This document shows positions 418 to 64,000 of a stretch of 64,000 nt of DNA, piece by piece. Source of the stretch: Thermoanaerobaculia bacterium (GTDB taxonomy: Bacteria; Acidobacteriota; Thermoanaerobaculia; UBA5066; Gp7-AA6); NCBI GenBank assembly GCA_038203955.1, contig JBBRDK010000002.1:17424-81423 (forward strand), written 5' to 3'. Made by a program: the position numbers and the translations under genes. The notes beneath the pieces are model-generated. The model was not told the origin of the DNA. It worked only from the letters and a program-made list of their open reading frames with translations, and searched no databases. How positions within the stretch are numbered: position 1 is the first letter of the stretch; each line of letters opens with the position of its first letter.

Positions 418-518
418 GGGAGGGCGTCAGGCGTCAGGCGCCAGGCGCGGGGCGAAGAGAGGAAGGGAAGACCTGCAGCCGCCAGCGCCCGGCGCCGAGC
501 GCCCAGCGCCCTCTGCGA

Positions 519-1073: not shown

Positions 1074-1189
1074 CGTCGGGGCAGTCTATGGGCGATGTCC
1101 CCCCCCGTCAAGGCGCGGGCCCCGGCGGAAAACGGCCGAAAACTGCCCTCTGTCCGGACGATTCGAGTTAGAATTGCACAAAAATAGAA

Positions 1190-3202: not shown

Positions 3203-3272
3203 GAAAGTTGAGAGTTTAGAGTCAGGAGTTCAGACCAAGAAGCCGGCGGTGTGCACTCTCAACTCTCAACTC
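3203..3272. terminator. putative bidirectional terminator hairpin built from AGTTGAG-type heptamers between the convergent mglA-like gene and era
   Basis: AGTTGAGAGTT ... AACTCTCAACT are perfectly complementary arms; the unit carries TGA on both strands; it lies between two convergent stop codons. Confidence 0.4.
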
Positions 3273-4207
3273 CCTCCCACCAGCCTCGATAGAAACCTCT
3301 CGTCTTCCCGCCAGTCCGCGCGGACGCGGACGGTGAGCTCTAAGAAGTAGCGCCGGCCGCTCTGCGCTTCGAGCTCCTGGCGGGCGGCGGTGCCGATGTC
3401 CCGGATCATCGTGCCGCCCCGCCCGACGATGATCCCCTTCTGCCCTTCCTTCTCGACCACGATGGACGCGGAGACGACCGTCAGGTTCTTCGCCTCGTCT
3501 TCGCGGACGGACTCGACCAGGACGGCGGAGGCGAAGGGCAGCTCTTCGCGCGTGCGCTCCAGAAGCTTCTCCCGCACGACTTCGCCGATCCATTCCGACT
3601 CCGGCGTCGCGGTCAGAAAGTCGTCGTCGTACGCCGCCTCGCCCGCGGGAAGGGCGGCGACGAGAAGGGAGGCCAGACGCTCGACGCCGTCTCCGGTCTT
3701 CGCGGAGATCGGAATCACGTCGCGAAAGGCATAACGGGCGGAAAAATCCGCGAGCAGCGGGAGCAAGGCGGGCTTGGGGAGAAGATCGACCTTGTTCAGG
3801 GCGAGAATGGCGGGCTTTCCGGCCCGCTCGAGAAGGCGGATCAGAAACTCCTCTCCCTTGCCGCGCCGATCGGCTGCGTCGATCACGAGCAGAACCAGGT
3901 CGGCCGTCGACAGCGCGTCCGTCGCGTCGCGAACCATGGCGGAATTCATGCGGTGCTCCGGCCGGTGGATCCCGGGCGTGTCCACGAGAGCGATCTCGGC
4001 CCCCGGCCGCCGCGCAATGCCCAGAATCCGCCGCCGGGTCGTCTGAGGCTTGTCGGAGACGATGGCCACTTTTTCGCCGACCAGCCGGTTGACGAGAGTG
4101 GATTTTCCGGCGTTCGGGCGCCCGACGACGGCGACCGCGCCCGCCCGGAAGGGGACGGCGTCTTCGGAGGGGACGGAGTCTCCGACGGGGACGGCGTCTT
4201 CGTTCAC
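3266..4207 (-). CDS. era: GTPase Era
   Basis: AVVGRPNAGKSTLVN G1 motif, DTPG, NKVD, C-terminal KH domain (VVREKLLERTREELPFA...). GTG start overlaps the corC stop as GTGA. Confidence 0.85.
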   Translation of the reverse strand: MNEDAVPVGDSVPSEDAVPFRAGAVAVVGRPNAGKSTLVNRLVGEKVAIVSDKPQTTRRRILGIARRPGAEIALVDTPGIHRPEHRMNSAMVRDATDALSTADLVLLVIDAADRRGKGEEFLIRLLERAGKPAILALNKVDLLPKPALLPLLADFSARYAFRDVIPISAKTGDGVERLASLLVAALPAGEAAYDDDFLTATPESEWIGEVVREKLLERTREELPFASAVLVESVREDEAKNLTVVSASIVVEKEGQKGIIVGRGGTMIRDIGTAARQELEAQSGRRYFLELTVRVRADWREDERFLSRLVGGS

Positions 4208-11126: not shown

Positions 11127-11195
11127 TTAGCTCTCAGCTGTCAGCTGTCAGCTCTCAGCTGTCAGCGGTTCTCAGTTCTCAGTCGTCAGTTGCTG
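11127..11195. repeat. tandem heptamer array (CTCAGCT/GTCAGCT then TCAGTTC)
   Basis: ~10 units of 7 nt in the divergent spacer between the IDH-family gene and the cupin gene; TGA on the minus strand in every unit. Confidence 0.9.
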
Positions 11196-15978: not shown

Positions 15979-16090
15979 GGTGACGTGGGGAACAGCAAAA
16001 GCCGCGCCTTGCGGAACCGAAGAGCAGGGCGCTCGAAGACCGCGGGCCGAGCCGAAGGCCTCACGCGCTCATTGTCGCACAGGAGAGGGC

Positions 16091-16132
16091 GTTGGGCGCC
16101 GGGCGCGAGACGTTGGGCGCCGGGCGCAACCG
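16091..16132. repeat. GC-rich 21-bp (3 x 7) direct repeat GTTGGGCGCCGGGCGCGAGAC x2
   Basis: Spacer between the helicase stop and the FHA gene start. Confidence 0.85.
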
Positions 16133-19866: not shown

Positions 19867-19938
19867 TCAGTTATCGGTTAGCAGTCATCAGTCGTGGGGA
19901 AACTCGGAACTGACAACTGAAAACTGAGAACTGAAAAC
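19864..19938. repeat. bipartite heptamer array (TCAGTnn half, then AACTGAN half)
   Basis: agtcagttatcggttagcagtcatcagtc ... ggaACTGACAACTGAAAACTGAGAACTGAAAAC; the halves are mutually complementary; TGA on both strands. Confidence 0.85.
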
Positions 19939-27515: not shown

Positions 27516-27665
27516 GCGCGGATCGCGCGGATCCGGATGGGAGGCCGCGCCCGGCCGGTGGCGGCCGAACCATCCGCTCAAAATCGCCCGCGGATCGCGC
27601 GGATCCGGATGGGAGGCCGCCCGGCCGGTGGGCGGCCGAACCATCCGCTCAGAATCCGGCCGCAA
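27516..27665. repeat. tandem direct repeat of a ~75-bp element, each copy containing an internal (CGCGGAT)x2 and a ~44-nt imperfect hairpin
   Basis: GCGGATCGCGCGGATCCGGATGGGAGGCCGC(GC)CCGGCCGGTGG(G)CGGCCGAACCATCCGCTCA(A/G)AATC occurs twice, ~95% identical; located in the carB upstream region. Confidence 0.9.
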
Positions 27666-34533: not shown

Positions 34534-34974
34534 ATGGCTCAGGCGCATCCCCAGAACTACAAGAATCACCGGCGGTTCATCCCGATCTACCACCTCGTGG
34601 CGTTCGGAATTCTCGCGATCAACGCGATCTACGCGCTCGTCCGTCTGGTTCGGGTTCCATCCTGGGAATCCGGCCTCTCTCTCGCGGTCGCCTTTGCGCT
34701 GCTCTGTCTCTTCTTCTTCTCGAGAGTCTTCGCCTTGACCGTTCAGGATCGGGTGATCCGCCTCGAGATGCGGCAGCGGCTCACCGCGATTCTTCCGGCG
34801 GACCTGCGCGGGCGGATCGAAGAGCTGAACCGGGACCAGCTCGTCGCGCTCCGTTTCGCGGGCGACGGTGAGATGTCCGACCTCGTTCGGGAGGTCTTGA
34901 CGAACAAGATCGTCAACCGCGATGAGATCAAGAAGCGGATCAAGGACTGGCAGGCCGACTACTTCAGGTGCTGA
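34534..34974 (+). CDS. hypothetical membrane protein (2 TM)
   Basis: RBS GAGGAAAGAC before the ATG; two hydrophobic helices followed by a charged C-terminal domain. Confidence 0.55.
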   Translation: MAQAHPQNYKNHRRFIPIYHLVAFGILAINAIYALVRLVRVPSWESGLSLAVAFALLCLFFFSRVFALTVQDRVIRLEMRQRLTAILPADLRGRIEELNRDQLVALRFAGDGEMSDLVREVLTNKIVNRDEIKKRIKDWQADYFRC

Positions 34975-35036
34975 GGAGCTCTCAGCTCTCAGCTCTCAGC
35001 TCTCAGCTCTCAGCTCTCAGCTCTCAGCTCTCAGTC
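34975..35036. repeat. tandem heptamer array (GAGCTCT / CTCAGCT) x ~8
   Basis: Perfect period-7 array between convergent genes; it supplies the TGA stop of the minus-strand gene 35024-35722. Confidence 0.95.
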
Positions 35037-36473: not shown

Positions 36474-36507
36474 AGAAGTTATCAGTTGTCAGTTTTCAGT
36501 TTTCAGA
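36474..36507. repeat. heptamer array (TCAGTTN)x4
   Basis: tatcagttgtcagttttcagttttcag between the meaB stop and the mce start. Confidence 0.85.
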
Positions 36508-46097: not shown

Positions 46098-46183
46098 GGT
46101 TATCAGATATCAGATATCAGATATCAGTTATCAGTTATCAGTCGGACGGACCGTAAACTCAAGACTGAAAACTGAGAACTGAA
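46098..46183. repeat. bipartite heptamer array: (TATCAGA/TTATCAG)x5, then (AACTGAN)x4
   Basis: ggttatcagatatcagatatcagttatcagttatcagtc...ctcaagactgaaaactgagaactgaagact; complementary halves; TGA on both strands. Confidence 0.9.
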
Positions 46184-46551: not shown

Positions 46552-46565
46552 AACGATTCGAACGG

Positions 46566-46608
46566 ATAACTGATAGCTGATAGCTGATAGCTGATAGCTG
46601 AAAACTGA
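46566..46608. repeat. tandem heptamer array (CTGATAG)x4 + CTGAAAACTGA
   Basis: Perfect period 7; TGA and TAG in every frame on the plus strand. Confidence 0.95.
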
Positions 46609-51011: not shown

Positions 51012-51046
51012 TGAGCTGTCAGCTCTCAGCTGTCAGCTTTCAGTGA
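51012..51046. repeat. heptamer array (GAGCTGT/CAGCTCT) between atpB and atpE
   Basis: gagctgtcagctctcagctgtcagctttcagtgac; intra-operon. Confidence 0.9.
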
Positions 51047-51834: not shown

Positions 51835-52155
51835 TCACTCCTGACCCGGCCGGCCGATCCAGAGCTCCGGGACGATGGCCAGCACCACGATCGAAAGGCC
51901 GGCCGCGCCGGCAACCGGGTCGAAATCCTTCCAGCGAAACAGAACGACGGCGAAGAGTAACAAACTGGCGGCCGTCACCAGGAGAAGAGGCGCAATGGTC
52001 CTGAATCCGGGCCGATTCTGCTGGGGTATGAGACGCAGGGTCAGTCTCTCGAGCGCGAGAAAGCTGAAAATAACGACGGCTGCCGCGATTGTCAAGGACA
52101 CGCCGGCGCGCCACCCGAAGGCAAAAGCGCCCGCGATCGCGAGCGCGCCGAGCAC
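51835..52155 (-). CDS. ATP synthase protein I-like small membrane protein
   Basis: 106 aa, 3-4 TM; sits between atpZ and atpB as AtpI does in many operons. Confidence 0.5.
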   Translation of the reverse strand: MLGALAIAGAFAFGWRAGVSLTIAAAVVIFSFLALERLTLRLIPQQNRPGFRTIAPLLLVTAASLLLFAVVLFRWKDFDPVAGAAGLSIVVLAIVPELWIGRPGQE

Positions 52156-52200
52156 GAAGGCGCGCCGCCGGACGCGGGAAATGAGGGGGTCGGTGGAGGA

Positions 52201-52234
52201 GTTGTCAGTCTTCAGTTTTCAGTTTTCAGTTCAG
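52201..52234. repeat. heptamer array (TCAGTTT)x4
   Basis: gttgtcagtcttcagttttcagttttcagttcag. Confidence 0.9.
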
Positions 52235-52253
52235 CCTCGGAACGACGTTCTCG

Positions 52254-52478
52254 TCAGCGATTCAGCCTTCCGGCGAGGCGGAAAAAGTTTACGAACGCGG
52301 CCGCAAGACCGAGCCCTCCGCCTACCCAGGAGGCGGCGCCCCCCCACCCGAACCGTCGAGCAATCCAGGCGCCCAGAAAGTAGCCGGCGAGGGGCCCCGC
52401 GAGGAAAAGAAGGCCCGCAGAGGTTCCCTCCGCGACGGCAGAGGCGCGGGAACGCCCAGGGGGCTCGGCATCACTCAT
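52254..52478 (-). CDS. AtpZ/AtpI-family small membrane protein (putative F0F1 ATPase-associated)
   Basis: 74 aa, two TM with Gly-rich helices; position immediately upstream of atpI/atpB. Confidence 0.5.
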   Translation of the reverse strand: MSDAEPPGRSRASAVAEGTSAGLLFLAGPLAGYFLGAWIARRFGWGGAASWVGGGLGLAAAFVNFFRLAGRLNR

Positions 52479-52493
52479 ATCGAGATCGATTCC

Positions 52494-52527
52494 GAACTGA
52501 GAACTGATAACTGAGAACTGAAAACTC
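52494..52527. repeat. heptamer array (GAACTGA / TAACTGA)x4-5
   Basis: ccgaactgagaactgataactgagaactgaaaactc; TGA every 7 nt on the plus strand. Confidence 0.95.
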
Positions 52528-52529
52528 TC

Positions 52530-53981
52530 TCAGTACTTGCTCGGCACGCACCGGTGCAGAACGTCCAGCACGCTCTCGGGGGCGACGCCGATCACGAGCG
52601 TTCCGACCGCGCAGATGATGACGGCGGCGGTCAGCGCGTAGGAGACGGGAATCTTCGCGCTGACGCCGTCGGTGAAGAACATCGCCGCCGCGATCCGGAA
52701 GTAGTAGAAGAGGGAGACCGCGGAGGCGAGCACGGCAATGACGGCGAGCCAGGCGTAGCCCGCGTCCATCGCCGCGGTGAACAGGTAGTACTTGCCGATG
52801 AAGCCGGCGGTCGGAGGGATTCCCGCGAGCGAGAGCAGGAAGAGAAGCATGACGACCGCCGCCGGCATGTTGCGCTTCGCGAGACCGTTGAAGTCGGACA
52901 CCGACTCGGCCGCGTAACCCTTCGCCTCGAGGAAGATGATGAGCCCGAAGGCGCCGAAGTTCATGAGCGTGTATGCCAGCAGGTAGACCAGCACGCCCCA
53001 CATCCCGAACTTCGTCTGGAACCCGAGGACGCCCAGGAGCGCGTATCCCGCGTGGGCGATCGACGAGTACGCAAACATCCGCTTGACGTTCGTCTGTAGC
53101 AGCGCGGCGAGGTTTCCCCAGATCATGGTCGCTGCCGCGACGAGGGCCACGATCAATCCCCAGTCGGCCTGGAACTTCGGGAACGCGACGTAGAAGATGC
53201 GCGCGAAGATCGCGTAAGCGGCGACCTTGGGCCCGACGGAGAAGAACGCGGTCACCGGCGTCGGCGAGCCCTCGTAGACGTCCGGAGTCCAGAGATGGAA
53301 CGGGACGGCCGCGATCTTGAAGAGCAGCCCCGCCAGAATCATGAGGATCCCGAGGACGATGGCGTTCGTCCGCTGCATGCCCGTGTAGAGCTGCGCGAGG
53401 TCGGCGAGGCCCATCTTCCCGCCGAGACCGTAGACGAGAGAGAGGCCGTAGAGGAGAACGGCCGACGAGAACGCGCCGAGGATGAAGTACTTGAGCGCCG
53501 CCTCCGTCGACTTGATCTCTCCCTTGAAGTATCCGGCCAGCACGTACGAAGCCAGCGCCATGAGCTCGAGGGCGACGTAGATGGAAATGAGATTGCTCCC
53601 GGACGCCATGAAGAACATCCCGACGCCGGAGAACAGGACCAGCGCGTAGTACTCGCCTCCCGGGTAGGGCGCTTCGCCGACGAACCGCACGGACGCGAGG
53701 ACGGTCAGCACCATCGCCAGCAGCACGAGAAACTTGAAGAAGAGGGCGAAGTTGTCGACCACGAACATGCCGCCGAGAATCGGGCCGTGGGCCCGCTCGG
53801 GCATCGTGGAGACGAAGACGAGCAGCACCCCGGTCACCCCGAGCATCAGCACCGAGAGGAACCCGAAGAGCTCTTCCTTCGCCTTCCCGACGAAGACGCT
53901 CGACGCCAGCAGGATCATCCCCGCGGCGGTCAAGAACAGCTCCGGCGAGAGCAGGAGCCAGTCGGTGGCCTGAACCTTCAC
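52530..53981 (-). CDS. nuoN: NADH-quinone oxidoreductase subunit N
   Basis: 483 aa, 14 TM, NuoN family; GTG start overlaps the nuoM stop (GTGA). Confidence 0.85.
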   Translation of the reverse strand: MKVQATDWLLLSPELFLTAAGMILLASSVFVGKAKEELFGFLSVLMLGVTGVLLVFVSTMPERAHGPILGGMFVVDNFALFFKFLVLLAMVLTVLASVRFVGEAPYPGGEYYALVLFSGVGMFFMASGSNLISIYVALELMALASYVLAGYFKGEIKSTEAALKYFILGAFSSAVLLYGLSLVYGLGGKMGLADLAQLYTGMQRTNAIVLGILMILAGLLFKIAAVPFHLWTPDVYEGSPTPVTAFFSVGPKVAAYAIFARIFYVAFPKFQADWGLIVALVAAATMIWGNLAALLQTNVKRMFAYSSIAHAGYALLGVLGFQTKFGMWGVLVYLLAYTLMNFGAFGLIIFLEAKGYAAESVSDFNGLAKRNMPAAVVMLLFLLSLAGIPPTAGFIGKYYLFTAAMDAGYAWLAVIAVLASAVSLFYYFRIAAAMFFTDGVSAKIPVSYALTAAVIICAVGTLVIGVAPESVLDVLHRCVPSKY

Positions 53982-55606
53982 CGGACCGCCGCTGCCGGGG
54001 CGGCGGGCGCCAGTTCCCCCGACGCCGCCGGGATCCCCGTTCCCGGCGCGCCCGCGTACGCCGGAGGAGTCATCGTCGCGCCTCCGACCGAGCGCACGAT
54101 GTTCTCGGAGGGAACCCGCAGGACGTCGAAGAACGGCTTCGGATAGAGGCCAATCCAGAGAGCGAGAACGACAAGCGGCGCCAGCGTCAGCTGCTCCCGA
54201 AAGGAGAGGTCGGGAAGCTTCGCGTTGGCCGGATTGGAGAGCTCTCCGAAGAAGACGCGCTGGTAGAGCCAGAGGAGGTACGCGGCTCCGAGCACGATGC
54301 CGGTGCAGGCGAAGAGAGCCCACCAGAAATTCTTCGCGAACGCTCCCTGCAGGATCGAGAACTCCCCGATGAATCCGTTCAAGAGAGGAAGGCCCATCGA
54401 CGAGAGCGCCATGATCAGGAAGTACGTGGCGTAGATCGGCATCTGCCGGGCGAGGCCGCCGTACTCGGCGATCATGCGCGTGTGCCGGCGCTCGTAGACC
54501 ACGCCGACTAAGAGGAAGAGGGCGCCCGTCGAGATGCCGTGGTTGATCATCTGCAGGACGCCGCCCTGCACGCCCGCCATGTTGAGCGCGAAGATCCCGA
54601 GCATCACGAACCCGAGATGCGACACCGAGGAGTACGCGATCAGCTTCTTCATGTCCTTCTGGACGAGAGTGACCATGGCGCCGTACACGATGCCGACGAT
54701 CGCGAGGAACACCATCGTCCCTATCACCCACGGCGTCTTCACGGCCTCCGGGAACATCGGCAGGGAGAACCGGACGAAGCCGTACGTGCCCATCTTCAGC
54801 AGGACCGCGGCGAGGATCACGGACCCCGCGGTCGGCGCCTCGGTGTGGGCGTCCGGCAGCCAGGTGTGGAACGGGAACATGGGCACCTTGATCGCGAACC
54901 CGAAGAAGAACGCGAAGAAGAGCCACACCTGGAGCTCCGGCGGCATCGCCGCGGCCACCGCGGTCAGCTTCGGAACGGAGAACGTCGCGGCGTGTCCGAG
55001 GCCCTTGTACCCGAGGAAGCCCGTGGTGTTGTAGAAATAGAGAGCGATGATGCCGAGCAGCATCAGCACCGACCCCGCCAGCGTGTACAGGAAGAACTTG
55101 ATCGCCGCGTAGAGCCGTCGCTGTCCTCCCCACACGCCGATCAGGAAGTACATCGGCACCAGCATGATTTCCCAGAACACGTAGAACAGGAAGAAGTCGA
55201 GGCAGCAGAACGTGCCGATCATGAACGTCTGCAGGAGGAGCAGGAGGATGTAGTACTCCTTCTGCCGCTCCGCGATCGCCGAGTAGGACGAATAGATCGC
55301 GATCACCCCGATCAACGTGGTCAGGAGGATCAGAAGCAGGGTGATTCCGTCGATCCCGAAGTGATAGTCGACTCCGAGAGACGGGATCCACGAAATGCGC
55401 TCGACGAACTGATACCCGGCCTTCGCGCGGTCGAAGGAGAACCAGAGCGGGAGCGAGACCGCAAAGTCGAGAGCGGCGACGGCCGTCGCGAACGCCTTGA
55501 TCGCTCCCGTTTTTTCCTTCGGGATCAGGAACATGATGATCAGCGCGCCGGCGAGCGGAATGTACGCGATCATCGAGAGAAGCGGCAGCTGTTGCAGTGT
55601 GTTCAT
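53978..55606 (-). CDS. nuoM: NADH-quinone oxidoreductase subunit M
   Basis: 542 aa; antiporter-like subunit signature (HTWLPDAH, LIAYSSVSHLG). Confidence 0.9.
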   Translation of the reverse strand: MNTLQQLPLLSMIAYIPLAGALIIMFLIPKEKTGAIKAFATAVAALDFAVSLPLWFSFDRAKAGYQFVERISWIPSLGVDYHFGIDGITLLLILLTTLIGVIAIYSSYSAIAERQKEYYILLLLLQTFMIGTFCCLDFFLFYVFWEIMLVPMYFLIGVWGGQRRLYAAIKFFLYTLAGSVLMLLGIIALYFYNTTGFLGYKGLGHAATFSVPKLTAVAAAMPPELQVWLFFAFFFGFAIKVPMFPFHTWLPDAHTEAPTAGSVILAAVLLKMGTYGFVRFSLPMFPEAVKTPWVIGTMVFLAIVGIVYGAMVTLVQKDMKKLIAYSSVSHLGFVMLGIFALNMAGVQGGVLQMINHGISTGALFLLVGVVYERRHTRMIAEYGGLARQMPIYATYFLIMALSSMGLPLLNGFIGEFSILQGAFAKNFWWALFACTGIVLGAAYLLWLYQRVFFGELSNPANAKLPDLSFREQLTLAPLVVLALWIGLYPKPFFDVLRVPSENIVRSVGGATMTPPAYAGAPGTGIPAASGELAPAAPAAAVR

Positions 55607-55608
55607 GC

Positions 55609-55648
55609 GTTCAGTTCTCAGTCATCCGTTTTCAGTTCTCAGTTTCCG
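55609..55648. repeat. heptamer array (TTCAGTT / TCTCAGT)
   Basis: gttcagttctcagtcatccgttttcagttctcagtttcc between nuoL and nuoM. Confidence 0.85.
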
Positions 55649-55654
55649 TTCGCG

Positions 55655-57877
55655 TCACCGGAAGAGCAGGTACACGGCGACGAGGCAGAAGAGCCCGCCG
55701 CCCATCACGAGGGCGTAGTTCTGAACGCGGCCGGTCTGCGCGCGCCGGAAGCCGCGGAAACCGGCCTGGAGCGTGTTCGCGACGCCGTTGACGAGGCCGT
55801 CCACCACGTACTGGTCGAAGAAGGAAGACAGCCACGAAAGCCCGACGGTCACGTGGCGCGCGCCGTTGACCGCTCCATCGATGACGGTGGCGTCGAAGTC
55901 CCAGAGGAAACGGCCGCCGCCCTTGGCGAGTCCCTGGACGAAGACCGAGTCGTAGGCCTCGTCCACGTAGTACTTGTTGGACACGGCCCGATACACTCCG
56001 GGGAACCGGGCGGCGATGCGTGCCGGTACCGCTCCCTCTCCCTTCGCGTACCAGACGTAAGCGATGGCGAGGCCGATCGCCGCCGCCGCCACGGAGGCCG
56101 CCATCAGGAGGGCTTCGGTCGACGCCGCCGCTTCGTGCGCCGCCGTATGCGCGCCCGCGCCGGCGAGAGGCAGCAGGATCGAATGGAGAAACGCCCCGAT
56201 CCGGTCCCCGCCGCGCACCATCGGAATCCCGACGTAGCCACCCACGACCGACAGGAACGCGAGGACGATCAGGGGGACGGTCATCGAGCGGGGAGATTCA
56301 TGGATCTGCGCCTCCTGCTCGGTTCCGCCGCGGAATTTTCCCCAGAAGGTCAGGGAGACGACCCGCAGCATGTAGAACGCGGTCAGGCCCGCCGTGAAGA
56401 GCGCCGCCGCCCAGAGCACTCGGCCGAGCCACGGGGCGCTCTCGAAGTGCGCCTCGAAAGCCGCGGCGAGGATCGCGTCCTTGGAGAAGAACCCGGCCAG
56501 AAGCGGCACTCCCGCGATCGCCAGCGTCGCGACGAGGAAAGTCCGGTACGTCACGGGTATCTTCGACGCGAGCCCGCCCATCTTGCGGATATCCTGCTCT
56601 CCCCCGAGCGCGTGGATGACGGATCCGGATCCTAAGAAGAGGCAGGCCTTGAAGAACGCGTGCGTCATCACGTGGAACATGCCGGCGACGAAGGCGCCGA
56701 CCCCGCAGGCGAGAAACATGTATCCCAGCTGCGACACGGTCGAGTAGGCGAGCACCTTCTTGATGTCGTTCTGAGCGATGCCGATCGTCGCGGCGAACAG
56801 CGCGGTGAATCCGCCAATCGCCGCGACGACCAGAAGGGCGTCGGGCGAGAGGCGGAAGAGGACGTTGCAGCGCGCGACCATGTACACGCCCGCCGTCACC
56901 ATCGTCGCCGCGTGGATCAGCGCCGAGACAGGCGTCGGGCCCGCCATGGCGTCCGGCAGCCAGACATAGAGCGGAAACTGGGCGGACTTGCCGCACGCGC
57001 CGACGAAGAGGCAGAGGCAGACCAGGGTCAGGTAGGGAGCGTACGCGGCCGGATGCGCGGCCGCCGCCGGGAAGACCTTGCCGAAGTCGAGCGAGCCGAA
57101 GAGGCTGAAGATTCCGAAGATCCCGAGGATGAAGCCGAAGTCTCCGATCCGGTTGACGACGAAGGCCTTCTTGCCCGCATCCGCGGCGGCGTCCCGATCG
57201 TAGAAGTAGCCGATCAGGAGGTACGAGCAGAGGCCGACTCCTTCCCAGCCCACGAAGAGCATCAGGAAGTTCGCGCCCAGCACGAGCAGCAGCATCGAGA
57301 ACATGAAGAGGTTGAGATAGGCGAAGTAGCGCCCGTAGCCCTCCTCGTGCCCCATGTACCCGACGGAGTAGACGTGGATCAGGAAGCCGACGAACGTGAC
57401 GAACGCGATCATCAGCGCCGACAGCGAATCGAGGCGGAACGCGGCGTCTACGAACCACTCACCGGCCGGGCCGTGCACCTGTCCGACGGCCTGGTTCACG
57501 CCGAGCGGCAGCCAGCGGTAGAGAGTCACGACGTGGGCCGCACCCTCCGAGAGGCGGGCGATGCCGACGTCGAAGATCGCGAGAAAAGCGAAGACGCAGG
57601 CGAGACCGACCGAAACGGTTCCGACGACCGTGTGGACCGTCTTGAACGGAATCGGCGAGTGCCCGGCCGGGTCGTGCGCGGGCGACGCGGCGTGCGTGTG
57701 AGCGGGATTCTCGCCGTGCACGGAAGGAGCGGGGGCCCCGGCAGGAGCCGGCGCGCCGTGCGACCCGTGAGCGTCGGCCGCCTCCCCCCGGGTGCGATGG
57801 GAGACCAGGTACAGAACCCCGTTGACGAGGAATCCCGCCAGCGGAAAGAGGGGCACGAGCCAGAGCAGGTCCTTCAA
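55655..57877 (-). CDS. nuoL: NADH-quinone oxidoreductase subunit L (with ~50-aa His/Pro/Ala-rich insertion after TM1)
   Basis: 740 aa; NuoL N-terminus MKDLLWLVPLFPLAGFLVNG; insertion HRTRGEAADAHGSHGAPAPAGAPAPSVHGENPAHTHAASPAHDPAGHSP; long C-terminal amphipathic helix region. Confidence 0.85.
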   Translation of the reverse strand: MKDLLWLVPLFPLAGFLVNGVLYLVSHRTRGEAADAHGSHGAPAPAGAPAPSVHGENPAHTHAASPAHDPAGHSPIPFKTVHTVVGTVSVGLACVFAFLAIFDVGIARLSEGAAHVVTLYRWLPLGVNQAVGQVHGPAGEWFVDAAFRLDSLSALMIAFVTFVGFLIHVYSVGYMGHEEGYGRYFAYLNLFMFSMLLLVLGANFLMLFVGWEGVGLCSYLLIGYFYDRDAAADAGKKAFVVNRIGDFGFILGIFGIFSLFGSLDFGKVFPAAAAHPAAYAPYLTLVCLCLFVGACGKSAQFPLYVWLPDAMAGPTPVSALIHAATMVTAGVYMVARCNVLFRLSPDALLVVAAIGGFTALFAATIGIAQNDIKKVLAYSTVSQLGYMFLACGVGAFVAGMFHVMTHAFFKACLFLGSGSVIHALGGEQDIRKMGGLASKIPVTYRTFLVATLAIAGVPLLAGFFSKDAILAAAFEAHFESAPWLGRVLWAAALFTAGLTAFYMLRVVSLTFWGKFRGGTEQEAQIHESPRSMTVPLIVLAFLSVVGGYVGIPMVRGGDRIGAFLHSILLPLAGAGAHTAAHEAAASTEALLMAASVAAAAIGLAIAYVWYAKGEGAVPARIAARFPGVYRAVSNKYYVDEAYDSVFVQGLAKGGGRFLWDFDATVIDGAVNGARHVTVGLSWLSSFFDQYVVDGLVNGVANTLQAGFRGFRRAQTGRVQNYALVMGGGLFCLVAVYLLFR

Positions 57878-57881
57878 GACG

Positions 57882-58187
57882 TCAGCCCTTCATCGTGTTC
57901 GCCTCTTCCACGTTCAGCGTCTTACGCTGGCGGAAGAGAGAGATGGTGAGCGCGAGGCCGATGGCGGCCTCACCGGCGGCGATCGTGATGACGAACACCG
58001 AGAAGACCTGGCCCGTCAGGTCCGAGAGCCTGCGGGAAAATGCGATGAAGTTGATGTTCACGGCGTTCAACATCAGCTCGATCGACATGAGCACGGTCAG
58101 AAAATTGCGGCGCACGAGCACGCCGAAGAACCCGATCGCGAAGAGGAGGAACGACAGGATGAGGAAATGGTTGATGGTGATTGTCAT
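57882..58187 (-). CDS. nuoK: NADH-quinone oxidoreductase subunit K
   Basis: 101 aa, 3 TM, conserved Glu residues (SIELMLNA, AAGEAAIGLAL). Confidence 0.9.
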   Translation of the reverse strand: MTITINHFLILSFLLFAIGFFGVLVRRNFLTVLMSIELMLNAVNINFIAFSRRLSDLTGQVFSVFVITIAAGEAAIGLALTISLFRQRKTLNVEEANTMKG

Positions 58188-58207
58188 GGGCGCCTCTCGC
58201 GGAGAGG

Positions 58208-58312
58208 CGCTGGGCGCTGGGCGCTGCGCAGCGGGCGCCGGGCGCCGGGCGCTGGGCGCTGGGCGAACGTCGAACGCCCCCGCCTAGCGCCTCCCGCCTC
58301 ACGCCTCACGCC
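58208..58312. repeat. GC-rich heptamer arrays (GCTGGGC/GCCGGGC)x8 followed by (CGCCTCA)x3
   Basis: ggcGCTGGGCGCTGGGCGCTGCGCAGCGGGCGCCGGGCGCCGGGCGCTGGGCGCTGGGCg...cgcctcccgcctcacgcctcacgcc; inside the nuo operon between nuoK and nuoJ. Confidence 0.9.
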
Positions 58313-58320
58313 CTCTTTCA

Positions 58321-58890
58321 TCAATCCACCTTCTCGAAGGAGCGTTTGCCGAGGACGACCGCGCCGATCATGGCGACGAGCAGGAACACCGACGCGACTT
58401 CGAAGGGCAGAAGGTAGTCGCGGAACATCAGCCAGGAGACGGCCTCCGTGTTGCCGACCACGCGCCCGGCGACGGCGCGGAAGGCGTCGGGATTGCGGGC
58501 GATGTCGGTGAACTTCTCGGTGCCGAGGATGTAGAGGAACGGGATAAGGAATACGGGCAGCAGGAGCAGCGCGATGTCCCACTGGTGCTGGAACGCCGGC
58601 GTGCCGGCCGCCGTGCGCTGGTGCACGAGCATGATCACGAAGAGAAACAGCACCATGATCCCGCCGGCGTAGACGAGGATCTGGACCGCGCCGACGAACT
58701 CCGCCTCCTCCAGGATGAAGACGCACGCGACCAGGAGGAACGACGCCAGCAGGAAGAGCGCCGAGTGGACCGGGTTCTTCGACCAGACGACCGCGATCGC
58801 GGTGCCGAGGATGAGCAGGGCGAAGCCGATGAACAGCCACCCGCCAACTCCCGTCAGGAGCGCGCTGCCCGCCGCCTCCGCCGCTCCCAT
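58321..58890 (-). CDS. nuoJ: NADH-quinone oxidoreductase subunit J
   Basis: 189 aa; NuoJ family TM pattern; ATG overlaps the nuoI stop (TGATG). Confidence 0.8.
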   Translation of the reverse strand: MGAAEAAGSALLTGVGGWLFIGFALLILGTAIAVVWSKNPVHSALFLLASFLLVACVFILEEAEFVGAVQILVYAGGIMVLFLFVIMLVHQRTAAGTPAFQHQWDIALLLLPVFLIPFLYILGTEKFTDIARNPDAFRAVAGRVVGNTEAVSWLMFRDYLLPFEVASVFLLVAMIGAVVLGKRSFEKVD

Positions 58891-59372
58891 CAGCCCTGCT
58901 CCATCACGGTGAAGGGCTTGACGTTCGGCGCCTCCTGCCAGTCTGTGAGCTTGCGGATGTCGAGGTACAGCGAGTCGTTGCGGTCGTACGACGCCATCTC
59001 GTAGGTCTTCGTCGTCAGCCAGATCGACTTGGGAACCGTCGGGCACGCCTCCTCGCAGAGCTGGCAGAACATGCACCGCTTCAGGTCCACGTCGAAGCGG
59101 TCGAGGACCTTGACGCCCTTGCCCGCCTCGTTCTTTTCATTGTGCCAGTCGATGTAGATGATGTTGATCGGACACTCGATCGCGCAGAGCGTGCACTTGA
59201 TGCAGCGCTCCTCGTCCAGGCGGAACATCCCGCGGAACCGATCCGACGGGATCTTCTTCTGCTCCGGGTACTGGATCGTCACCTTCTTGCCGAAGAGGTG
59301 CCGTCCCGTGACCCCGAGCCCGTCGAAGAGATCGAGGAGGGTCAGCTTGTCGAGCCACTTCTTGAGAGCCAT
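58890..59372 (-). CDS. nuoI: NADH-quinone oxidoreductase subunit I (2x[4Fe-4S])
   Basis: CIKCTLCAIECP and CMFCQLCEEACP motifs; 160 aa. Confidence 0.95.
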   Translation of the reverse strand: MALKKWLDKLTLLDLFDGLGVTGRHLFGKKVTIQYPEQKKIPSDRFRGMFRLDEERCIKCTLCAIECPINIIYIDWHNEKNEAGKGVKVLDRFDVDLKRCMFCQLCEEACPTVPKSIWLTTKTYEMASYDRNDSLYLDIRKLTDWQEAPNVKPFTVMEQG

Positions 59373-59401
59373 GGGACCTTTTCCTCTTCTCTTCTATGCC
59401 T

Positions 59402-60588
59402 TCAAGCCTTCAAAGCCGACTGCCGCGTGCCCGCCGGCTCGGACGCCAGCCGGTCGCGGCGGGCGAGACCCTGGCGCAGCTTCGCCAGGAAGAACATGAG
59501 CAGGAACAGCGCGCCGAAGATCCACCCGAGCCGCACGAGCCCGTCGGTGCGTCCGGGGGTCCACAGAATCGCGAGCGCGACGATCACGATGTTGACGAGC
59601 GAGAGGGGGATCATCCACTTCCAGCCGAGAGCCATCAGCTGATCGAATCGGTATCGCGGAAACGTGGATCGGAACCAGATGTAGCAGAAGATGAAGAACC
59701 CGACCTTCGCCAGGAACCACACGAAGGGCGGGACGATGTGGAGGAACGACAGCGCCTTGACGTGGCCGAAAGGCGGCAGCCAGCCGCCGAAGAACACGGT
59801 GACGGCCACGCACGAGATGATGATCATCGCCGCGTATTCGCCCAGGAAGAAGAAGGCGAACTTCACCCCCGAGTACTCCGTGTTGAACCCGGACACGAGC
59901 TCGGACTCCGCCTCCGGCAGGTCGAAGGGGTTGCGGTTGGTCTCGGCCACCCCCGACACGAAATAGAGAAAGAAGGAGAGAAGGCCGGGGAAGACGAACC
60001 AGAGCTGCATCCGGTCCTGCCGCATGACGATCTCGACGAGCGAGAGCGACCGCGTCATCAGGAGCACCGCGACGAGGGAAAGCCCCATCGGGACCTCGTA
60101 GGACACGAGCTGCGCGGCCGACCGAAGGCCGCCGAGCATCGAGTACTTGTTGTTGGAGGCCCAGCCGCCGAGGATGATCCCGTACACGCCGATCGAGGTG
60201 ATCGCGAGCAGGAACAGAAGCCCGATGTTGATGTCGGCGACCCAGAGCGGGGTCGAGACGTGCCGCGCCAGCCGGACCGACGGGCCCATCGGGATGACCG
60301 CCAGCGCGGTGAGCGCCGGGATGACCGCCAGCACGGGCGCTAAGAAATGAACGAACTTCTCCGCCCGCGCGGGCGTCACGTCCTCCTTCGTCACGAGCTT
60401 CAGGAGATCGGCGAGCCCCTGAAGCGTGCCCTTGGGCCCGACGCGGTTGGGCCCGAGCCGCACCTGCATGAAGCCCATGATCCGGCGCTCGGCGAGCACG
60501 ATGACGAACCCGACGATCGCGGGAACGACGGCCACGATCAGCAGCACCTTCACGTAGGTCAGGAAGGTGGGCGTGAGGATTTTCATGC
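59402..60588 (-). CDS. nuoH: NADH-quinone oxidoreductase subunit H
   Basis: VLAERRIMGFMQVRLGPNRVGP... NuoH signature; ATG is the internal MKILTPTF. Confidence 0.9.
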
Positions 60589-60602
60589 GTGACCCCCGGG
60601 GC

Positions 60603-60742
60603 CGGGAATCGGGAATCGGGAGCCAAGCGACCAACGGGAGCGAGACGGCCGCGGTACGCCGCGGTCAACTAGATCGGGAATCGAAAAGGCGGGACGCCCC
60701 GGGATTCCCTCGTTTCCCGTTTCCCGTTTTCCGTTTTCCGTC
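60603..60742. repeat. heptamer arrays (GGGAATC)x3 and (CGTTTYC)x4 in the nuoD-nuoH spacer
   Basis: gGGAATCGGGAATCGGGAGCC ... cgtttcccgttttccgttttccgtcc. Confidence 0.85.
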
Positions 60743-60746
60743 CTCC

Positions 60747-61985
60747 TCACCTGTCCACCTCGCCCAGCACGATGTCGATCGTGCCGATCAGGGCAACGAG
60801 GTCTGAGATCAGGTGGCCCTTCGCCATCTTGGGCAGGGCCTGCAGGTTGATGAACGAGGGCGGACGGCAGTGCATCCGATAGGGCCGGTTGCTGCCGTTC
60901 GAGACGCAGTAGAAGCCGAGCTCGCCCTTCGGCGACTCGATCGACGCGTAGACTTCCTCGGCGGGCGGCTTGATCACGCGCGGGACCTTCCCGCGGATCT
61001 CTCCGGGCTCGAGCCGGTCCAGGCACTGGCGAAGGATGCGCACGCTCTGCCGCATCTCCTGGACGCGGACGATGTACCGGTCGTACGTGTCTCCGTTCTG
61101 CCGCGTCGGGACGGCGAAGTCGAGCTCGTCGTAGCACTCGTAGGGCTGCGCCCGCCGCAGGTCCCACTCGATCCCGGACGCGCGGATCAGGGGCCCGGTC
61201 AGGCCGTACTCGACGCACTCCGCGGCGGTCAGCACGCCGATCCCGACCGTCCGCCGCTTCCAGATCCGGTTGTCGGTGAGCAGCTGCTCGTAGTCGTCGA
61301 TGCGCCCTGGGAGGTCGTCGACGAACTCCAGGAGCCGCTCGACCCACCCGGCCGTCAGGTCGAACGGAAGGCCGCCGATCCGCATGCAGTTCAAGGTCAG
61401 GCGCGCGCCGCAATACTCCTCGAAGAAGTCCAGGATCTGCTCGCGCTCCCGGAACGCGTACCAGAAGGGCGTCACCGCCCCGAGGTCGATGCCGGACGTG
61501 CCGAGCCAGACGAGATGGCTCGAGAGACGCTGGAGCTCGTCCAGAATCACCCGGATCAGCTGAGCCCGCCGCGGGACCTCGACGTCGATGAGCTTCTCGA
61601 TCGTCAGGCAGAACGCGTGGTTGTTCGTCGCCGCCGCCACGTAGTCCATGCGGTCGGTGTGCGGAATTCCCATCGGGTACGTCTCGGTCTCGAAGAGCTT
61701 CTCGGTCCCGCGGTGCAGGAATCCGACGTCGGGGAGCGCCTCCAGGATCTTCTCGCCGTCGACCTTCAGCACGATCCGGAGGACGCCGTGCGTCGAGGGA
61801 TGCTGGGGCCCGAAGTTGAGCTCCATCTCCTGCACGTCGAAGAGCGTCGGAGGCTCTCCCGGCGCCGGGGGCGTGTCCCCCTGGGAGAGCGGCCTCGCGA
61901 CGCCGGCCGCTGCCGCGCGCTCCGCGAAGTGCGCGGCTTCGTCGCGCTCGGCCTGAGAGAGCTTCTCGTCAACCATGAGAAACAC
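60747..61985 (-). CDS. nuoD: NADH-quinone oxidoreductase subunit D (49 kDa)
   Basis: NuoD signature throughout (GPQHPSTHGVLR, ...HRGTEKL...); followed directly by nuoH, with no nuoE/F/G. Confidence 0.9.
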   Translation of the reverse strand: MFLMVDEKLSQAERDEAAHFAERAAAAGVARPLSQGDTPPAPGEPPTLFDVQEMELNFGPQHPSTHGVLRIVLKVDGEKILEALPDVGFLHRGTEKLFETETYPMGIPHTDRMDYVAAATNNHAFCLTIEKLIDVEVPRRAQLIRVILDELQRLSSHLVWLGTSGIDLGAVTPFWYAFREREQILDFFEEYCGARLTLNCMRIGGLPFDLTAGWVERLLEFVDDLPGRIDDYEQLLTDNRIWKRRTVGIGVLTAAECVEYGLTGPLIRASGIEWDLRRAQPYECYDELDFAVPTRQNGDTYDRYIVRVQEMRQSVRILRQCLDRLEPGEIRGKVPRVIKPPAEEVYASIESPKGELGFYCVSNGSNRPYRMHCRPPSFINLQALPKMAKGHLISDLVALIGTIDIVLGEVDR

Positions 61986-61987
61986 TC

Positions 61988-62070
61988 GGGAAACGGGAAA
62001 CGGGAAACGGGAAACGAAGGGAATCGAACCGCATGGGCGTTTTACGTTTTACGCTTTCCGTTTCCCGACC
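61988..62070. repeat. heptamer arrays (GGGAAAC)x4 and (CGTTTTA)x2-3 in the nuoC-nuoD spacer
   Basis: cGGGAAACGGGAAACGGGAAACGGGAAACgaagggaatcgaacc...CGTTTTACGTTTTACGCTTTCCGTTTCCC; the two halves are partly complementary. Confidence 0.9.
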
Positions 62071-62078
62071 TCGTTCCC

Positions 62079-62687
62079 TCACGACACCACCTTGCGATTG
62101 GGATCGCTGGCGCCCGGGCCGCCGCCTTCCGGCCATTCTTCCGGGTAGATCGCGGCGCCCGTGTCGATCCCTTCGAGGGGAAAGTCCTTGCGCAGCGGGT
62201 GGCCGTGGAACCCCTCCCAGGTCAGGATCCGGCGAAGGTCCGGGTGCCCCGAGAAGCGGATCCCGAACATGTCGAATGTCTCCCGCTCGCACCAGTTCGC
62301 CGCGAGATAGACGCGCGCGATCGAAGGGACGTCTTCGCCCTCGGCCGCGCCGCATTTGACGCGGATTCGGTCGTTCTTCGAGAAGGAGTAGAAGTGGTAG
62401 ACGACGTCGAAGCGCGGCGCGCGCTCCTTCCAGTCCACCGCCGTAACGTCGACGCAGTAAGCGAAGTCCTCGGCCTGCTTCAGGTGCCGGGCGACGTCGG
62501 CGATCTTCTCGCGGGCGACCGTCACCGTCACCTGGCCCGCGAATTTCTTGGAGGCGAGCACGGCGCCCGGGACGCCCGCGGAAAGAGATACGACCCACGG
62601 ATGGCTCGCCGCGTCCGCCGCGACCAGCTTCGGCTTCGCAACTTCTTTGGCACCGGTCGTGGCCGGGGGCGTGATCTCCTCGGCCAT
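62079..62687 (-). CDS. nuoC: NADH-quinone oxidoreductase subunit C (30 kDa)
   Basis: [22 protein letters not shown] NuoC signature; ATG is the internal MAEEITPP. Confidence 0.85.
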
Positions 62688-62695
62688 GCGATGGT

Positions 62696-63181
62696 TTAAG
62701 AGGCCTTCCGGATGACTTTCATCCGGTCGATCTTCTTCTGGAGCGCCATGATCCCGTAGATCAGCGCCTCCGGCCGCGGCGGGCAGCCGGGAACGTACAC
62801 GTCCACCGGGACGATCCGGTCCACCCCCTGGGTGACGGCGTAGGTCCGGTAGGGCCCGCCGCAGGTCGCGCAGGAGCCCATCGCGATGACCCACTTGGGA
62901 TCGGGCATCTGGTCGTAGAGGCGCTTGACGACGGGAGCCATCTTTTCGACGACGGTCCCTGCGACGATCATGAGATCCGACTGCCGTGGCGTTCCCCGGA
63001 ACACCTCGGCGCCGAACCGGGCCAGGTCGTGCCGGGCGTCCATCACCGCCATCATCTCGATCGCGCAGCACGCCAGGCCGAACTGCATCGGCCAAATGGA
63101 GGACCGCCGCGCCCAGTTGATGACGGAGTCGACCGTCGTCGTCAGGACGTTTTCTTCGAATCTGTTGTCGACGAGACCCAT
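62696..63181 (-). CDS. nuoB: NADH-quinone oxidoreductase subunit B (20 kDa)
   Basis: GLACCAIEM...GSCATCGG...PGCPP N2 cluster cysteines. Confidence 0.95.
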
Positions 63182-63200
63182 GGGACGGTTCGCCCTTCTG

Positions 63201-63571
63201 CTACGCCCAGTCGAGCGCCTGGCGCTTCCAGACGTAGAAATATCCGACGACGAGAATCACCAGGAAAATCACCATTTCGATCAAACCGAAGAGCCCGAGC
63301 CGGTGGAAGAGGACGGCCCAGGGGAAGAGAAAGATCGTCTCGACGTCGAACACCACGAAGAGGACCGCGATCAAGAAATAGCGGACAGAAAAGCGCGTGT
63401 CGAAAGCGAACGTCGTCGCCGCGATACCGGATTCGTAAGGCTCTAGCTTCGCTGGGTTTGGCCGCCGCGTCTGGATGGCCCGAGCGAGAAAAATCGTAGC
63501 CAGAGGCAGAGCCGCCGCCAGCAGGCCCAGAATCAGAATCGGAAAGTAGTTGGCCACCTGAGCGGTCATTC
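63201..63571 (-). CDS. nuoA: NADH-quinone oxidoreductase subunit A
   Basis: KLEPYESGI...FDVE NuoA signature; ATG is the internal MTAQVANYF. Confidence 0.85.
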
Positions 63572-63591
63572 TATCGGAGGGAAAAAAGGAA

Positions 63592-64000
63592 TCAACCCGC
63601 ATTCCCGGCCGTCTCCGACGCGTCGAGAACGGGAGACGTCAAGCCGCGCGACTGGACGAGCACGGAGATCTCATCGCCCATTCCCTCGGGATCGACGAGC
63701 CGGTACGCGCGCCATCGGGCCGCGTCGTCCGGAGTGAAATCGAAGACGCCCGACTCGACGAGGAAGCGGCCCTGGCGCGAAATGCCTTCGGTCGTCAGCC
63801 CCTCCGCCTCTCCCGCCTCGATCAACAGGTCCCAGTGCACGTGCGCGGTCAGGTCGACCTGCCCCGGCCGCGACAGGGGGTCTCCCCGGCGCAGGCCCGC
63901 AAAATGCACCGCGAGGGTCCCGTGCCGGCGCGCCGTCGCATGGTAGAGGACAGGCGAGCGGTGCCCGTAGTCGAAGGAGACGAGGGACCCGTGGCCGAGC
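63592..64000 (-). CDS. class I SAM-dependent methyltransferase, DUF185/MidA (NDUFAF7-like), C-terminal part (gene continues past the right window edge)
   Basis: C-terminal DUF185 pattern ...VDLTAHVHWDLL...EGISRQGRFLVESG...; the ORF runs to the window edge. Confidence 0.6.
   Translation of the reverse strand, partial: LGHGSLVSFDYGHRSPVLYHATARRHGTLAVHFAGLRRGDPLSRPGQVDLTAHVHWDLLIEAGEAEGLTTEGISRQGRFLVESGVFDFTPDDAARWRAYRLVDPEGMGDEISVLVQSRGLTSPVLDASETAGNAG

Follow-up and report, generated by a model that had tools for sequence, protein, structure and literature searches.

Heptamer arrays at operon junctions of a Thermoanaerobaculia bacterium: inverted pairing, rapid turnover and a possible hairpin role

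The spacer between nuoJ and nuoK is filled with GC-rich tandem repeats of seven nucleotides in a 64-kb stretch of DNA, hereafter the window, from the metagenome-assembled genome (MAG) of an uncultured Thermoanaerobaculia bacterium (Acidobacteriota; G+C content of the host 68%). Similar heptamer arrays are located in the pyrR-pyrB spacer, on both sides of nuoD, and between the UvrD helicase and FHA protein genes. This locus raises the question of what these arrays are and why they are located at gene junctions. Bacterial heptamer repeats have been known for decades without an accepted function or an accepted reason for the number seven. The lineage studied here provides a natural experiment, in which many units are present in one genome and the element of a given junction can be followed through species. 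We assign the GGGCGCY, CGCCTCA and GGGAAAC arrays to the heptanucleotide simple-sequence repeats (SSRs), a class known from Xanthomonas, cyanobacteria and Beggiatoaceae, and heptamer repeats are extremely dense in this Thermoanaerobaculia lineage. This is a known element class, now in a new phylum. The period, the unit number, the complementarity of the arms and the strand polarity persist across species, while the unit sequence and the G tracts turn over. We conclude with moderate confidence that the heptamer repeats are generated by slippage and that their looping out as hairpins lets them persist at the junctions of coupled genes.

The nuoJ-nuoK hairpin and the heptamer arrays of the window

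The nuoJ-nuoK spacer is flanked by nuoJ upstream (58321-58890, minus strand; PF00499, E 1.2e-40) and nuoK downstream (57882-58187, minus strand; PF00420, E 5.9e-32). It contains GGCGCTG in 8.6 copies with one internal irregularity (58206-58265) and CGCCTCA in 3.6 copies (58288-58312). These arrays are inverted and pair with each other as mutual complements, a property of the arrays that was overlooked in a first-pass annotation of the window. The arrays and the RNA fold define an intercistronic hairpin at 58212-58313 on the minus strand. The nuoJ stop codon (58321-58323) lies 7 nt ahead of the stem. On the mRNA strand, the G-rich 5' arm (about 58274-58313) reads GGGCGTGA GGCGTGA GGCGGGA GGCGCTA GGCGGGGG, the loop is GTTCGACGTTCG, and the C-rich 3' arm (58212-58267) consists of CGCCCAG/CGCCCGG units. 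The RNA fold of 58188-58320 on the minus strand has an energy of -86.2 kcal/mol (z -3.13), and none of 200 shuffled sequences is equally stable. The copy number of 8.6 units comes from a single assembly, because exact-protein look-ups of the NuoJ and PyrR of the window find no second genome and that of NuoI finds only a different strain. The array between the UvrD and FHA genes is base-for-base identical between two independent read-set assemblies, indicating that the arrays are not assembly artefacts. The arrays are likely points of breakage or collapse in short-read assemblies.

The period-7 arrays were detected with Tandem Repeats Finder (TRF) and with our own period-7 detector, and the chance level was obtained from first-order Markov simulations. 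Our detector finds 25 period-7 arrays in the 64 kb, as compared to 1.07 expected and a maximum of 4 in the simulations, and TRF gives about 30 period-7 rows (25-31 arrays over both detectors). Other periods are nearly empty in our detector, with two arrays for period 8 and one for period 9. The arrays fall outside gene calls in 23 of the 25 cases, as judged from crude calls that are based on GC3 (the G+C content of third codon positions) and that missed several membrane-protein genes. The period-7 arrays have 17 distinct consensus units. The double unit of GGGCGCY, GGGCGCYGGGCGC, is matched 13 times with at most one mismatch, as compared to 3.6 times expected, and none of 100 shuffles reaches 13. 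The most frequent units have a CTGA/TCAG core (AACTGAR, AGCTGTC, AGCTCTC, TATCAGA and GATAGCT), and others are similar to GAGTTGA. The GC-rich and GGGAAAC arrays are just two flavours within this wider set. The arrays that the first-pass annotation had named are all present where it had placed them, according to TRF and inspection of the sequence, and all five of its loci lie between co-oriented genes as it had described. Its list is real but incomplete, and comprises a minority of the 25-30 or so arrays with 17 unit types. It had also stated that the units carry no stop codon, which is contradicted by the mRNA strand, where the CGCCTCA arm reads TGAGGCG and the GGCGTCA arm reads TGACGCC.

The gene identities were assigned by Pfam and NCBIfam for PyrR, PyrB (N-terminus), NuoJ, NuoK, NuoD, NuoC, the UvrD helicase and the FHA protein. 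Rfam gives no match over the whole window at the gathering score, and a tRNA scan of the window finds none. Promoter and terminator scans give no site at an array; among the terminator-like sites of 52000-64000 and 1-3600, none coincides with an array, and no array is followed by a U-tract. According to these terminator scans, the array hairpins do not show the combination of a GC-rich stem and a U-tract that defines an intrinsic terminator. Two other candidates were dropped, namely a CRISPR array, because the repeats are contiguous without spacers, and a coding role, because a period of seven disrupts the frame and the open reading frames (ORFs) with coding-like GC3 do not include the arrays.

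Paired arms in related operons

The nuo junctions were mapped in 80 nuo loci of other species (denoted by L numbers), with the nuoN junctions excluded, and array pairs were searched for in 127 spacers of 40-260 nt from these loci. The MAG contig nearest to the window is JAIVJS010000004.1. At least one array is present in 50 of the 127 spacers, and an array pair in 23. The nuo junctions of the outgroups mostly measure -4 to +10 nt, and in the clade of the window the C-D, D-H, J-K and L-M junctions sporadically bear inserts of 60-175 nt, which are mostly heptamer arrays. The order on the mRNA strand is the stop codon, a G/purine-rich arm of about four to five units, a loop, a C/pyrimidine-rich imperfect complement of this arm, and about 14 nt with a Shine-Dalgarno-like stretch before the start codon. 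In the 23 pairs, the consensus unit of one arm agrees with the reverse complement of that of the other at 5.5 of 7 positions, as compared to 3.7 of 7 for arms of different elements. The median distance is about 4 nt from the stop codon to the 5' arm and about 14 nt from the 3' arm to the start codon, and the latter leaves room for the GGAG-like sequences seen there. The 5' arm has more G than C in 19 of the 23 pairs and more C than G in none. The predicted stems are composed of helices of 5-6 bp, with one or two mismatches per heptad.

The same architecture is found in the plus orientation for genes on the plus strand. At 3199-3275 (plus strand), a purine-rich GTTGAGA-type arm, a loop and an ACTCTCA arm directly follow the stop codon of an Arf-like GTPase gene (1190-3202), and the copy number of this element is unlike that of the 99%-identical relative L085. 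At 46098-46182 (plus strand), an AT-richer paired element lies between two plus-strand genes, with a TATCAGA/TTATCAG arm after the stop codon and an AAACTGA/GAACTGA arm 9 nt before the ATG at 46192. The architecture flips with gene orientation, indicating that the polarity of the arms tracks transcription and not the chromosome strand. As a separate observation, paired heptamers are also found at the nuo junctions of the Desulfobaccales MAGs L079, L081 and L077, which belong to a different phylum. Their units are AT-rich (AGCTTTA/AGCTTAN, GGTTTTC/AAAAACC and CAACTGT), and L079 has 12 arrays in 20 kb.

The evolution of one junction is seen best in the nuoD-nuoH element. In the window, nuoD is flanked by CGGGAAT (60603-60621) and CGTTTCC (60711-60741) on one side and by CGGGAAA in 4.3 copies (61987-62016) and CGTTTTA (62038-62063) on the other. 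The 5' arm of the nuoD-nuoH element (60708-60746, minus strand) consists of GGAAAAC/GGGAAAC units and begins directly after the nuoD stop codon at 60747, and the 3' arm (60601-60624, minus strand; CCCGATT on the mRNA and GGGAATC on the plus strand) ends 14 nt before the nuoH ATG (60586). The two arms are about 80 nt apart, and the interval includes a CCGCGG...CCGCGG hairpin. This element is orthologous to the 4+4 elements of L005, L007, L028, L034 and L035. The length of the element is 103 nt in L005, L007, L034 and L035, 106 nt in L028, 97 nt in L003 and 100 nt in L015, and the NuoD proteins of the four species with the 103-nt element are 82-95% identical to that of the window. The heptads share a register (GGRANNC) after a conserved GA(A/G)GAC lead, and the unit differs by species. 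The 5' and 3' units are GGGAATC and CCGATTA in L005, GGGAGGC and CGCCTTC in L034, GGAAGAC and CGTCTAC in L035, GGGACTC and CCCGCGT in L028, and GTCAGGG and CGCCTCA in L007. RNAalifold predicts from the four 103-nt sequences a 27-bp stem (6 bp plus one mismatch, four times) with 12 compensatory pairs. Counted on this structure, 92.6% of the cells are paired and 13 of the 27 pairs are changed on both sides. None of 500 shuffles reaches the observed count, and slid partners pair at 37-49%.

The nuo operon of the window (52530-63602) has the order nuoA-B-C-D-H-I-J-K-L-M-N and lacks nuoE, nuoF and nuoG between nuoD and nuoH. The loci of Desulfobaccales and Bryobacteraceae have 2.7-6.5 kb between nuoD and nuoH.

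The arrays change fast, with gains, losses and changes of size between near-identical genomes. In L001, L003 and L004, the NuoK of which is identical to that of the window, the nuoJ-nuoK spacer has no array and a length of 13 nt; in L002 and the window it measures 116-133 nt and contains a homologous array, and a homologous form is also present in L036. The arrays of the window differ by whole heptads from those of its closest, 99%-identical relative (L085). Such extragenic elements of 60-175 nt, imperfect palindromes that one close relative may have at a junction and another lack, resemble mobile palindromic elements, in which repetitive extragenic palindromes (REP), bacterial interspersed mosaic elements (BIME) or miniature inverted-repeat transposable elements would insert into intercistronic gaps and be spread by a transposase. 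Unit flavours also recur at unlinked sites, GGGCGCY at three loci and GGGAAAC on both sides of nuoD, and a loop segment of about 75 nt is common to the nuoC-nuoD and nuoD-nuoH spacers of L004. The REP/BIME of enterobacteria and pseudomonads, which can stabilise upstream mRNA segments, are built from units of 20-40 nt that have a tagged head and belong to a family of conserved sequence, and they are linked to the REP-associated tyrosine transposase. The elements described here share with them the imperfect palindromes between co-transcribed genes, but they have 17 different units, are heptad-periodic, and have neither a common body nor a conserved head such as GTAG or CGTC across the copies. 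No target-site duplication is found by eye at the nuoJ-nuoK insertion. Orthologous elements keep their flanks, length and register while their units change in concert, which argues for evolution in situ, and the changes in copy number come in whole heptads. Rehm et al. 2015 (PMC4692102) report no link of heptamers to mobile elements. We therefore consider spreading by a transposase to be quite improbable.

The loop segment of L004, the closest relative, deserves a separate description. The segment of about 75 nt of the nuoD-nuoH loop is copied in the nuoC-nuoD spacer (6792-6921 and 8152-8302 of L004). The segment common to both spacers includes CTTCGATTC.CGATCGAGTTGACCGCGGA.TACCGCGGCCGTCTCGCTCCCGTTGGTCGCT, and it is absent from the nuoC-nuoD spacer of the window. 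The duplicated segment suggests that sequence may be exchanged between the two elements flanking nuoD.

The nuoC-nuoD spacer of the window contains an intercistronic hairpin (61989-62078, minus strand; -37.7 kcal/mol, z -2.77), as defined by arrays and fold. Its 5' arm reads GGAAAGC GTAAAAC GTAAAAC (62037-62060), and its 3' arm has four copies of GTTTCCC (61984-62018) and abuts the called nuoD GTG at 61985. The GGG-bearing arms at this and other junctions could instead form G-quadruplexes, at the DNA or the RNA level, that influence how the junction is transcribed or translated, as the first-pass annotation had proposed; Rehm et al. 2015 also frame their repeats in this way. The sequence (GGGNNNN)4 fits the G3N1-7 motif, canonical motifs are present at 58233-58256, 60598-60620 and 61988-62011 on the plus strand and at 60697-60725 on the minus strand, and the arms of about four units have the minimum number for a G-quadruplex. 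Oligonucleotides of the GGGAATC type form G-quadruplexes in vitro according to circular dichroism (PMC4692102), and GGGAATC occurs at 60601-60624. However, G4Hunter, which had been named as a check on this proposal, gives the GGGCGCY arrays a mean of 0.6-0.9 and a maximum of 1.16, below the usual criterion of about 1.2-1.5, and the pyrR-pyrB and UvrD-FHA spacers have no canonical G3 motif. The three nuo motifs on the plus strand are not on the mRNA strand, and a sense-strand G3 motif is present in only 2 of the 23 paired elements of related loci. In many arms the G runs are limited to GG or lacking altogether (GACAGGT, GCGAGGT and GAAGACG, for example), position 3 of the unit toggles between G and A across species, and the CTGA-type arrays share the period and the placement without G tracts. 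In addition, the G-rich arms face a complementary C-rich arm 10-25 nt away, which is a strong competitor. It is possible that the GGGAAAC/GGGAATC arms form G-quadruplexes, but this cannot be the common principle, and as an explanation of the arrays in general we regard it as unlikely. The earlier idea of a structure-forming array thus retains its plausibility in that the spacers fold as hairpins, but not with the G-quadruplex in the leading role.

The same features bear on a periodic binding site, in which a protein would contact one heptad per subunit or domain and control translation, mRNA decay or DNA topology. Candidates are the RNA-binding proteins S1, Csp and CsrA, or a nucleoid or other DNA-binding protein. 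The strict period of 7 nt, the retention of about four to five units while the sequence drifts, and the strand polarity that follows transcription are consistent with such a binder. The CTGA arrays abut the start codons in the place of the Shine-Dalgarno sequence, as in Beggiatoaceae, for which S1, Csp and CsrA have been proposed, and the deletion of heptamer repeats in Nostoc altered the output of a reporter (bioRxiv 10.1101/2022.06.06.494920). The presence of 17 units in one 64-kb window, with different units at orthologous sites, argues against one sequence-specific binder, and elements are lost between near-identical genomes with the flanking proteins unchanged. A periodic binder is therefore doubtful as well. 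Taken as a whole, the persistent features speak against both a single sequence-specific binder and a general G-quadruplex principle, and point to the geometry of the hairpin or to the mutational process itself.

The pyrR-pyrB spacer and the proposed role of the hairpins

The pyrR-pyrB spacer contains GGCGTCA in 3.6 copies (423-447) and CCAGCGC in 4.3 copies (482-511), and the arrays and the RNA fold define an intercistronic hairpin at 420-513 on the minus strand (-64.0 kcal/mol, z -4.37). Its 5' arm reads GGGCGCT GGGCGCT CGGCGCC GGGCGCT and is followed by a pyrimidine-rich loop of about 27 nt, and its 3' arm reads CGCGCCT GGCGCCT GACGCCT GACGCCC. The stem starts 5 nt past the pyrR stop codon (519-521), and 3-5 nt separate its end from the called pyrB GTG (416). 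A PyrR-dependent attenuator, or another riboswitch-like regulator in which the array hairpin would serve as the terminator or anti-terminator, is suggested at this position by the upstream gene, which encodes a bona fide PyrR (NF003549, 228.6 bits with a cutoff of 138), and by the very stable hairpin that fills the spacer. However, Rfam detects no PyrR element overlapping 423-510, either at the gathering score in the window or at E<=10 in 1-1500, where the only match is a chance snoRNA-like one (E 0.14). The PyrR binding-loop motif UCCAGAGAGGCU, searched with up to three mismatches, has 43 matches as compared to 54 expected, and none of them is in 1-1500. The earlier remark that this spacer contains only the array and no PyrR loop motif is thereby borne out. 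The stem is followed by CCCUCCCGGUG and not by a U-tract, and 417-518 contains no terminator-like site. The insert measures 102 nt in the window, is degenerate and 92 nt long in relatives with a 99%-identical PyrR, and is reduced to 55, 25 or 14 nt in other relatives. Hairpins of like kind are also present at the nuo junctions. The attenuator reading is refuted as far as sequence analysis reaches, and we give it almost no credence. The suggestion that the arrays tune the expression of the pyr or nuo genes in particular does not hold either, in view of the pyrR-pyrB and nuoJ-nuoK inserts that are absent, shorter or degenerate in close relatives. It would be a mistake to see gene-specific regulators in the arrays, for example a stand-in for a PyrR attenuator.

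A promoter-like sequence, TTGACG-17-TAGACT (1074-1111, minus strand), is located about 9 nt before the called pyrR TTG and is conserved in L085, L087 and L088. In this clade, a promoter at this position would make the pyrR mRNA almost leaderless, and a 5' PyrR attenuator would not fit.

The persistence of the arrays as hairpins, which we favour, can be described as follows. Replication slippage would create, resize and homogenise the arrays, and arm-to-arm template switching, selection for pairing, or both would keep nearby inverted arrays complementary. The site is the junction of co-transcribed genes that ancestrally overlap or are separated by a few bases. An insert of about 100 nt would fold there into a long, periodically mismatched stem in the mRNA. 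The looped-out insert would leave the stop codon within about 20 nt of the next initiation region, and this nearness of the stop codon and the ribosome-binding site would preserve translational coupling. The intercistronic stem-loop is probably resistant to nucleases, and may slow exonucleases. The arrays would then be tolerated, possibly mildly useful structural inserts, and the roles of gene-specific regulator, PyrR attenuator and dedicated G-quadruplex switch would fall away.

Several results weigh against this explanation. Pure slippage does not explain the copy number of about 4+4 and the length of 103 nt over a long divergence, nor does it explain that the G-rich arm is always the first. 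The compensatory pairs of the nuoD-nuoH element are not independent events, because one change of the unit is propagated through four units. The long-range fold of this element in the window (-64.5 kcal/mol, z -0.21) is no better than those of shuffled sequences. The spacer between the UvrD and FHA genes contains an array at 16087-16132 on the minus strand, in which TRF and the sequence show GTTGGGCGCCGGGCGC twice at a spacing of 21 bp (copies at 16091-16127). This array is C-rich on the mRNA strand and its partner arm is weak, and its fold (-44.1 kcal/mol, z -1.74) is not better than those of shuffled sequences, so that the support for a hairpin is weak at this locus. The paired elements fold equally well in the sense and antisense orientations, with a mean difference of -0.8 kcal/mol and the sense strand better in 12 of 23, and G-U and A-C appositions are about equally frequent in the stems. 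Nothing in these two results singles out selection at the RNA level over selection at the DNA level. A contrast of sense and antisense folding with array-free spacers was not used, because it is confounded by base composition. The nuoJ-nuoK spacer also contains a second small hairpin, GCGCCUCUC-CGC-GAGAGGCGC (58190-58210, minus strand), which is built from the last unit of the 3' arm. This hairpin is perfect with 9 bp, takes into its stem the Shine-Dalgarno-like GAGAGG that closely precedes the nuoK ATG (58185-58187), and is missing from the relatives without the nuoJ-nuoK array. As modelled, it would hinder, and not preserve, initiation. Finally, looping-out, coupling and stabilisation are what we infer for a lineage that is uncultured.

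A stronger version, in which the inverted arrays are a selected, sequence-independent structural module whose geometry is read by the cell, is tentative and rather unlikely. The module would consist of four to five 6-bp helices with regular mismatches, positioned exactly in the gap from the stop codon to the ribosome-binding site that follows, and it might act as a device for ribosome hand-over, as an insulator that is resistant to RNases and yet proof against RNase III, or as a docking site for a periodic binder. If true, such a module would explain why the period, the unit number, the length of 103 nt and the G-first polarity persist across species and even phyla as the sequence is replaced.

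Relation to known heptamer repeats and further arrays

The closest known repeats are the GGGAATC and GGGGA(C/T)T heptamers of Xanthomonas and Nostoc (Rehm et al. 2015, PMC4692102). They are intergenic, mostly between aligned ORFs, with four units preferred, and their G-rich strand lies within 50 bp after a stop codon if on the coding strand, or before a start codon if on the non-coding strand. Each genome has 70-75 convergent inverted pairs capable of forming a stem-loop, and the length varies between relatives while the type is kept (PMC4692102). The arrays of the window resemble them in the tandem 7-nt units, the intergenic location, the placement at stop and start codons, the number of about four units, the inverted pairs and the variation in copy number. 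The unit consensus GGGNATC is matched in the window only at 60601-60624 (GGGAATC), and GGGAATC is also found in L005; GGGCGCY, GGCGTGA and GGGAAAC differ from this consensus, and are therefore assigned to the broader kind of heptamer SSR. Whereas one unit is dominant in the repeats of Rehm et al. 2015, the window has GGGCGCY, GGCGTGA, GGGAAAC, GAGTTGA, NNCTGAN and others, most arms lack G3 tracts, and the host is an acidobacterium. The tracing of orthologous elements across species, with concerted change of the units and covariation of the arms, is not reported in PMC4692102.

A second relative is the TAACTGA direct repeat just upstream of start codons in marine Beggiatoaceae, cyanobacteria and Bacteroidetes (MacGregor 2015, PMC4679880). 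The CTGA-core heptamers of the window are likewise in the forward orientation, a few nucleotides from the start codons and without an obvious Shine-Dalgarno sequence, and the TAACTGA unit itself is present inside 52493-52526. In MacGregor 2015 there is one unit only, related heptamers seldom occur as repeats, and inverted sets are almost absent, whereas the CTGA arrays of the window vary (AACTGAR, AGCTGAC and AGCTGAT) and some of them serve as the 3' arm in inverted pairs. The TAACTGA unit family does not include the GC-rich and GGGAAAC arrays. SSRs with units of 5-11 nt, of which heptamers are the commonest, were surveyed by Mrazek, Guo and Shah 2007; as cited in PMC4679880, they are non-coding and phylogenetically sporadic, and a slippage origin is proposed, with slippage favouring heptamers. 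The stop-arm-loop-arm-start architecture at operon junctions is not known to be described in these SSR surveys or in those of short tandemly repeated repetitive (STRR) sequences. In the literature searched, there is no report of such heptamers in Acidobacteriota or Desulfobaccales. The STRR heptamers of cyanobacteria were reportedly described by Mazel et al. in 1990.

The CTGA-core arrays of the window (AACTGAR, AGCTGAY and AGCTGAC) are in the sense orientation and 0-27 nt upstream of start codons, often in the place of the Shine-Dalgarno sequence. They are located at 46561-46608, 36477-36507, 55611-55644, 51014-51043, 19907-19938 and 11127-11190; that at 46561-46608 ends 2 nt before an ATG, and that at 55611-55644 ends 4 nt before the nuoM ATG. 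Three successive CTGA-type units put TGA in all three frames. After stop codons, this family is found in the opposite (TCAG) orientation. Inverted CTGA/TCAG arrays at 52204-52233 and 52493-52526 bracket a hydrophobic ORF of 74 amino acids (52254-52478, minus strand) downstream of nuoN, where a terminator-like stem with a T-run is also present at 52435-52415. The longest perfect array of the window is (AGCTCTC) in 8.3 copies at 34977-35034, directly after the stop codon of a plus-strand gene (34534-34974), and its unit is the palindrome GAGCTC plus one T. Apart from the heptamers and with no relation to them, a 72-bp tandem duplication (2.0 copies, 94% identical, TRF score 248) is located at 27517-27656 between two large minus-strand ORFs, and each copy contains the GC-rich hairpin GGCCGCCCGGCCGGTGGGCGGCC.

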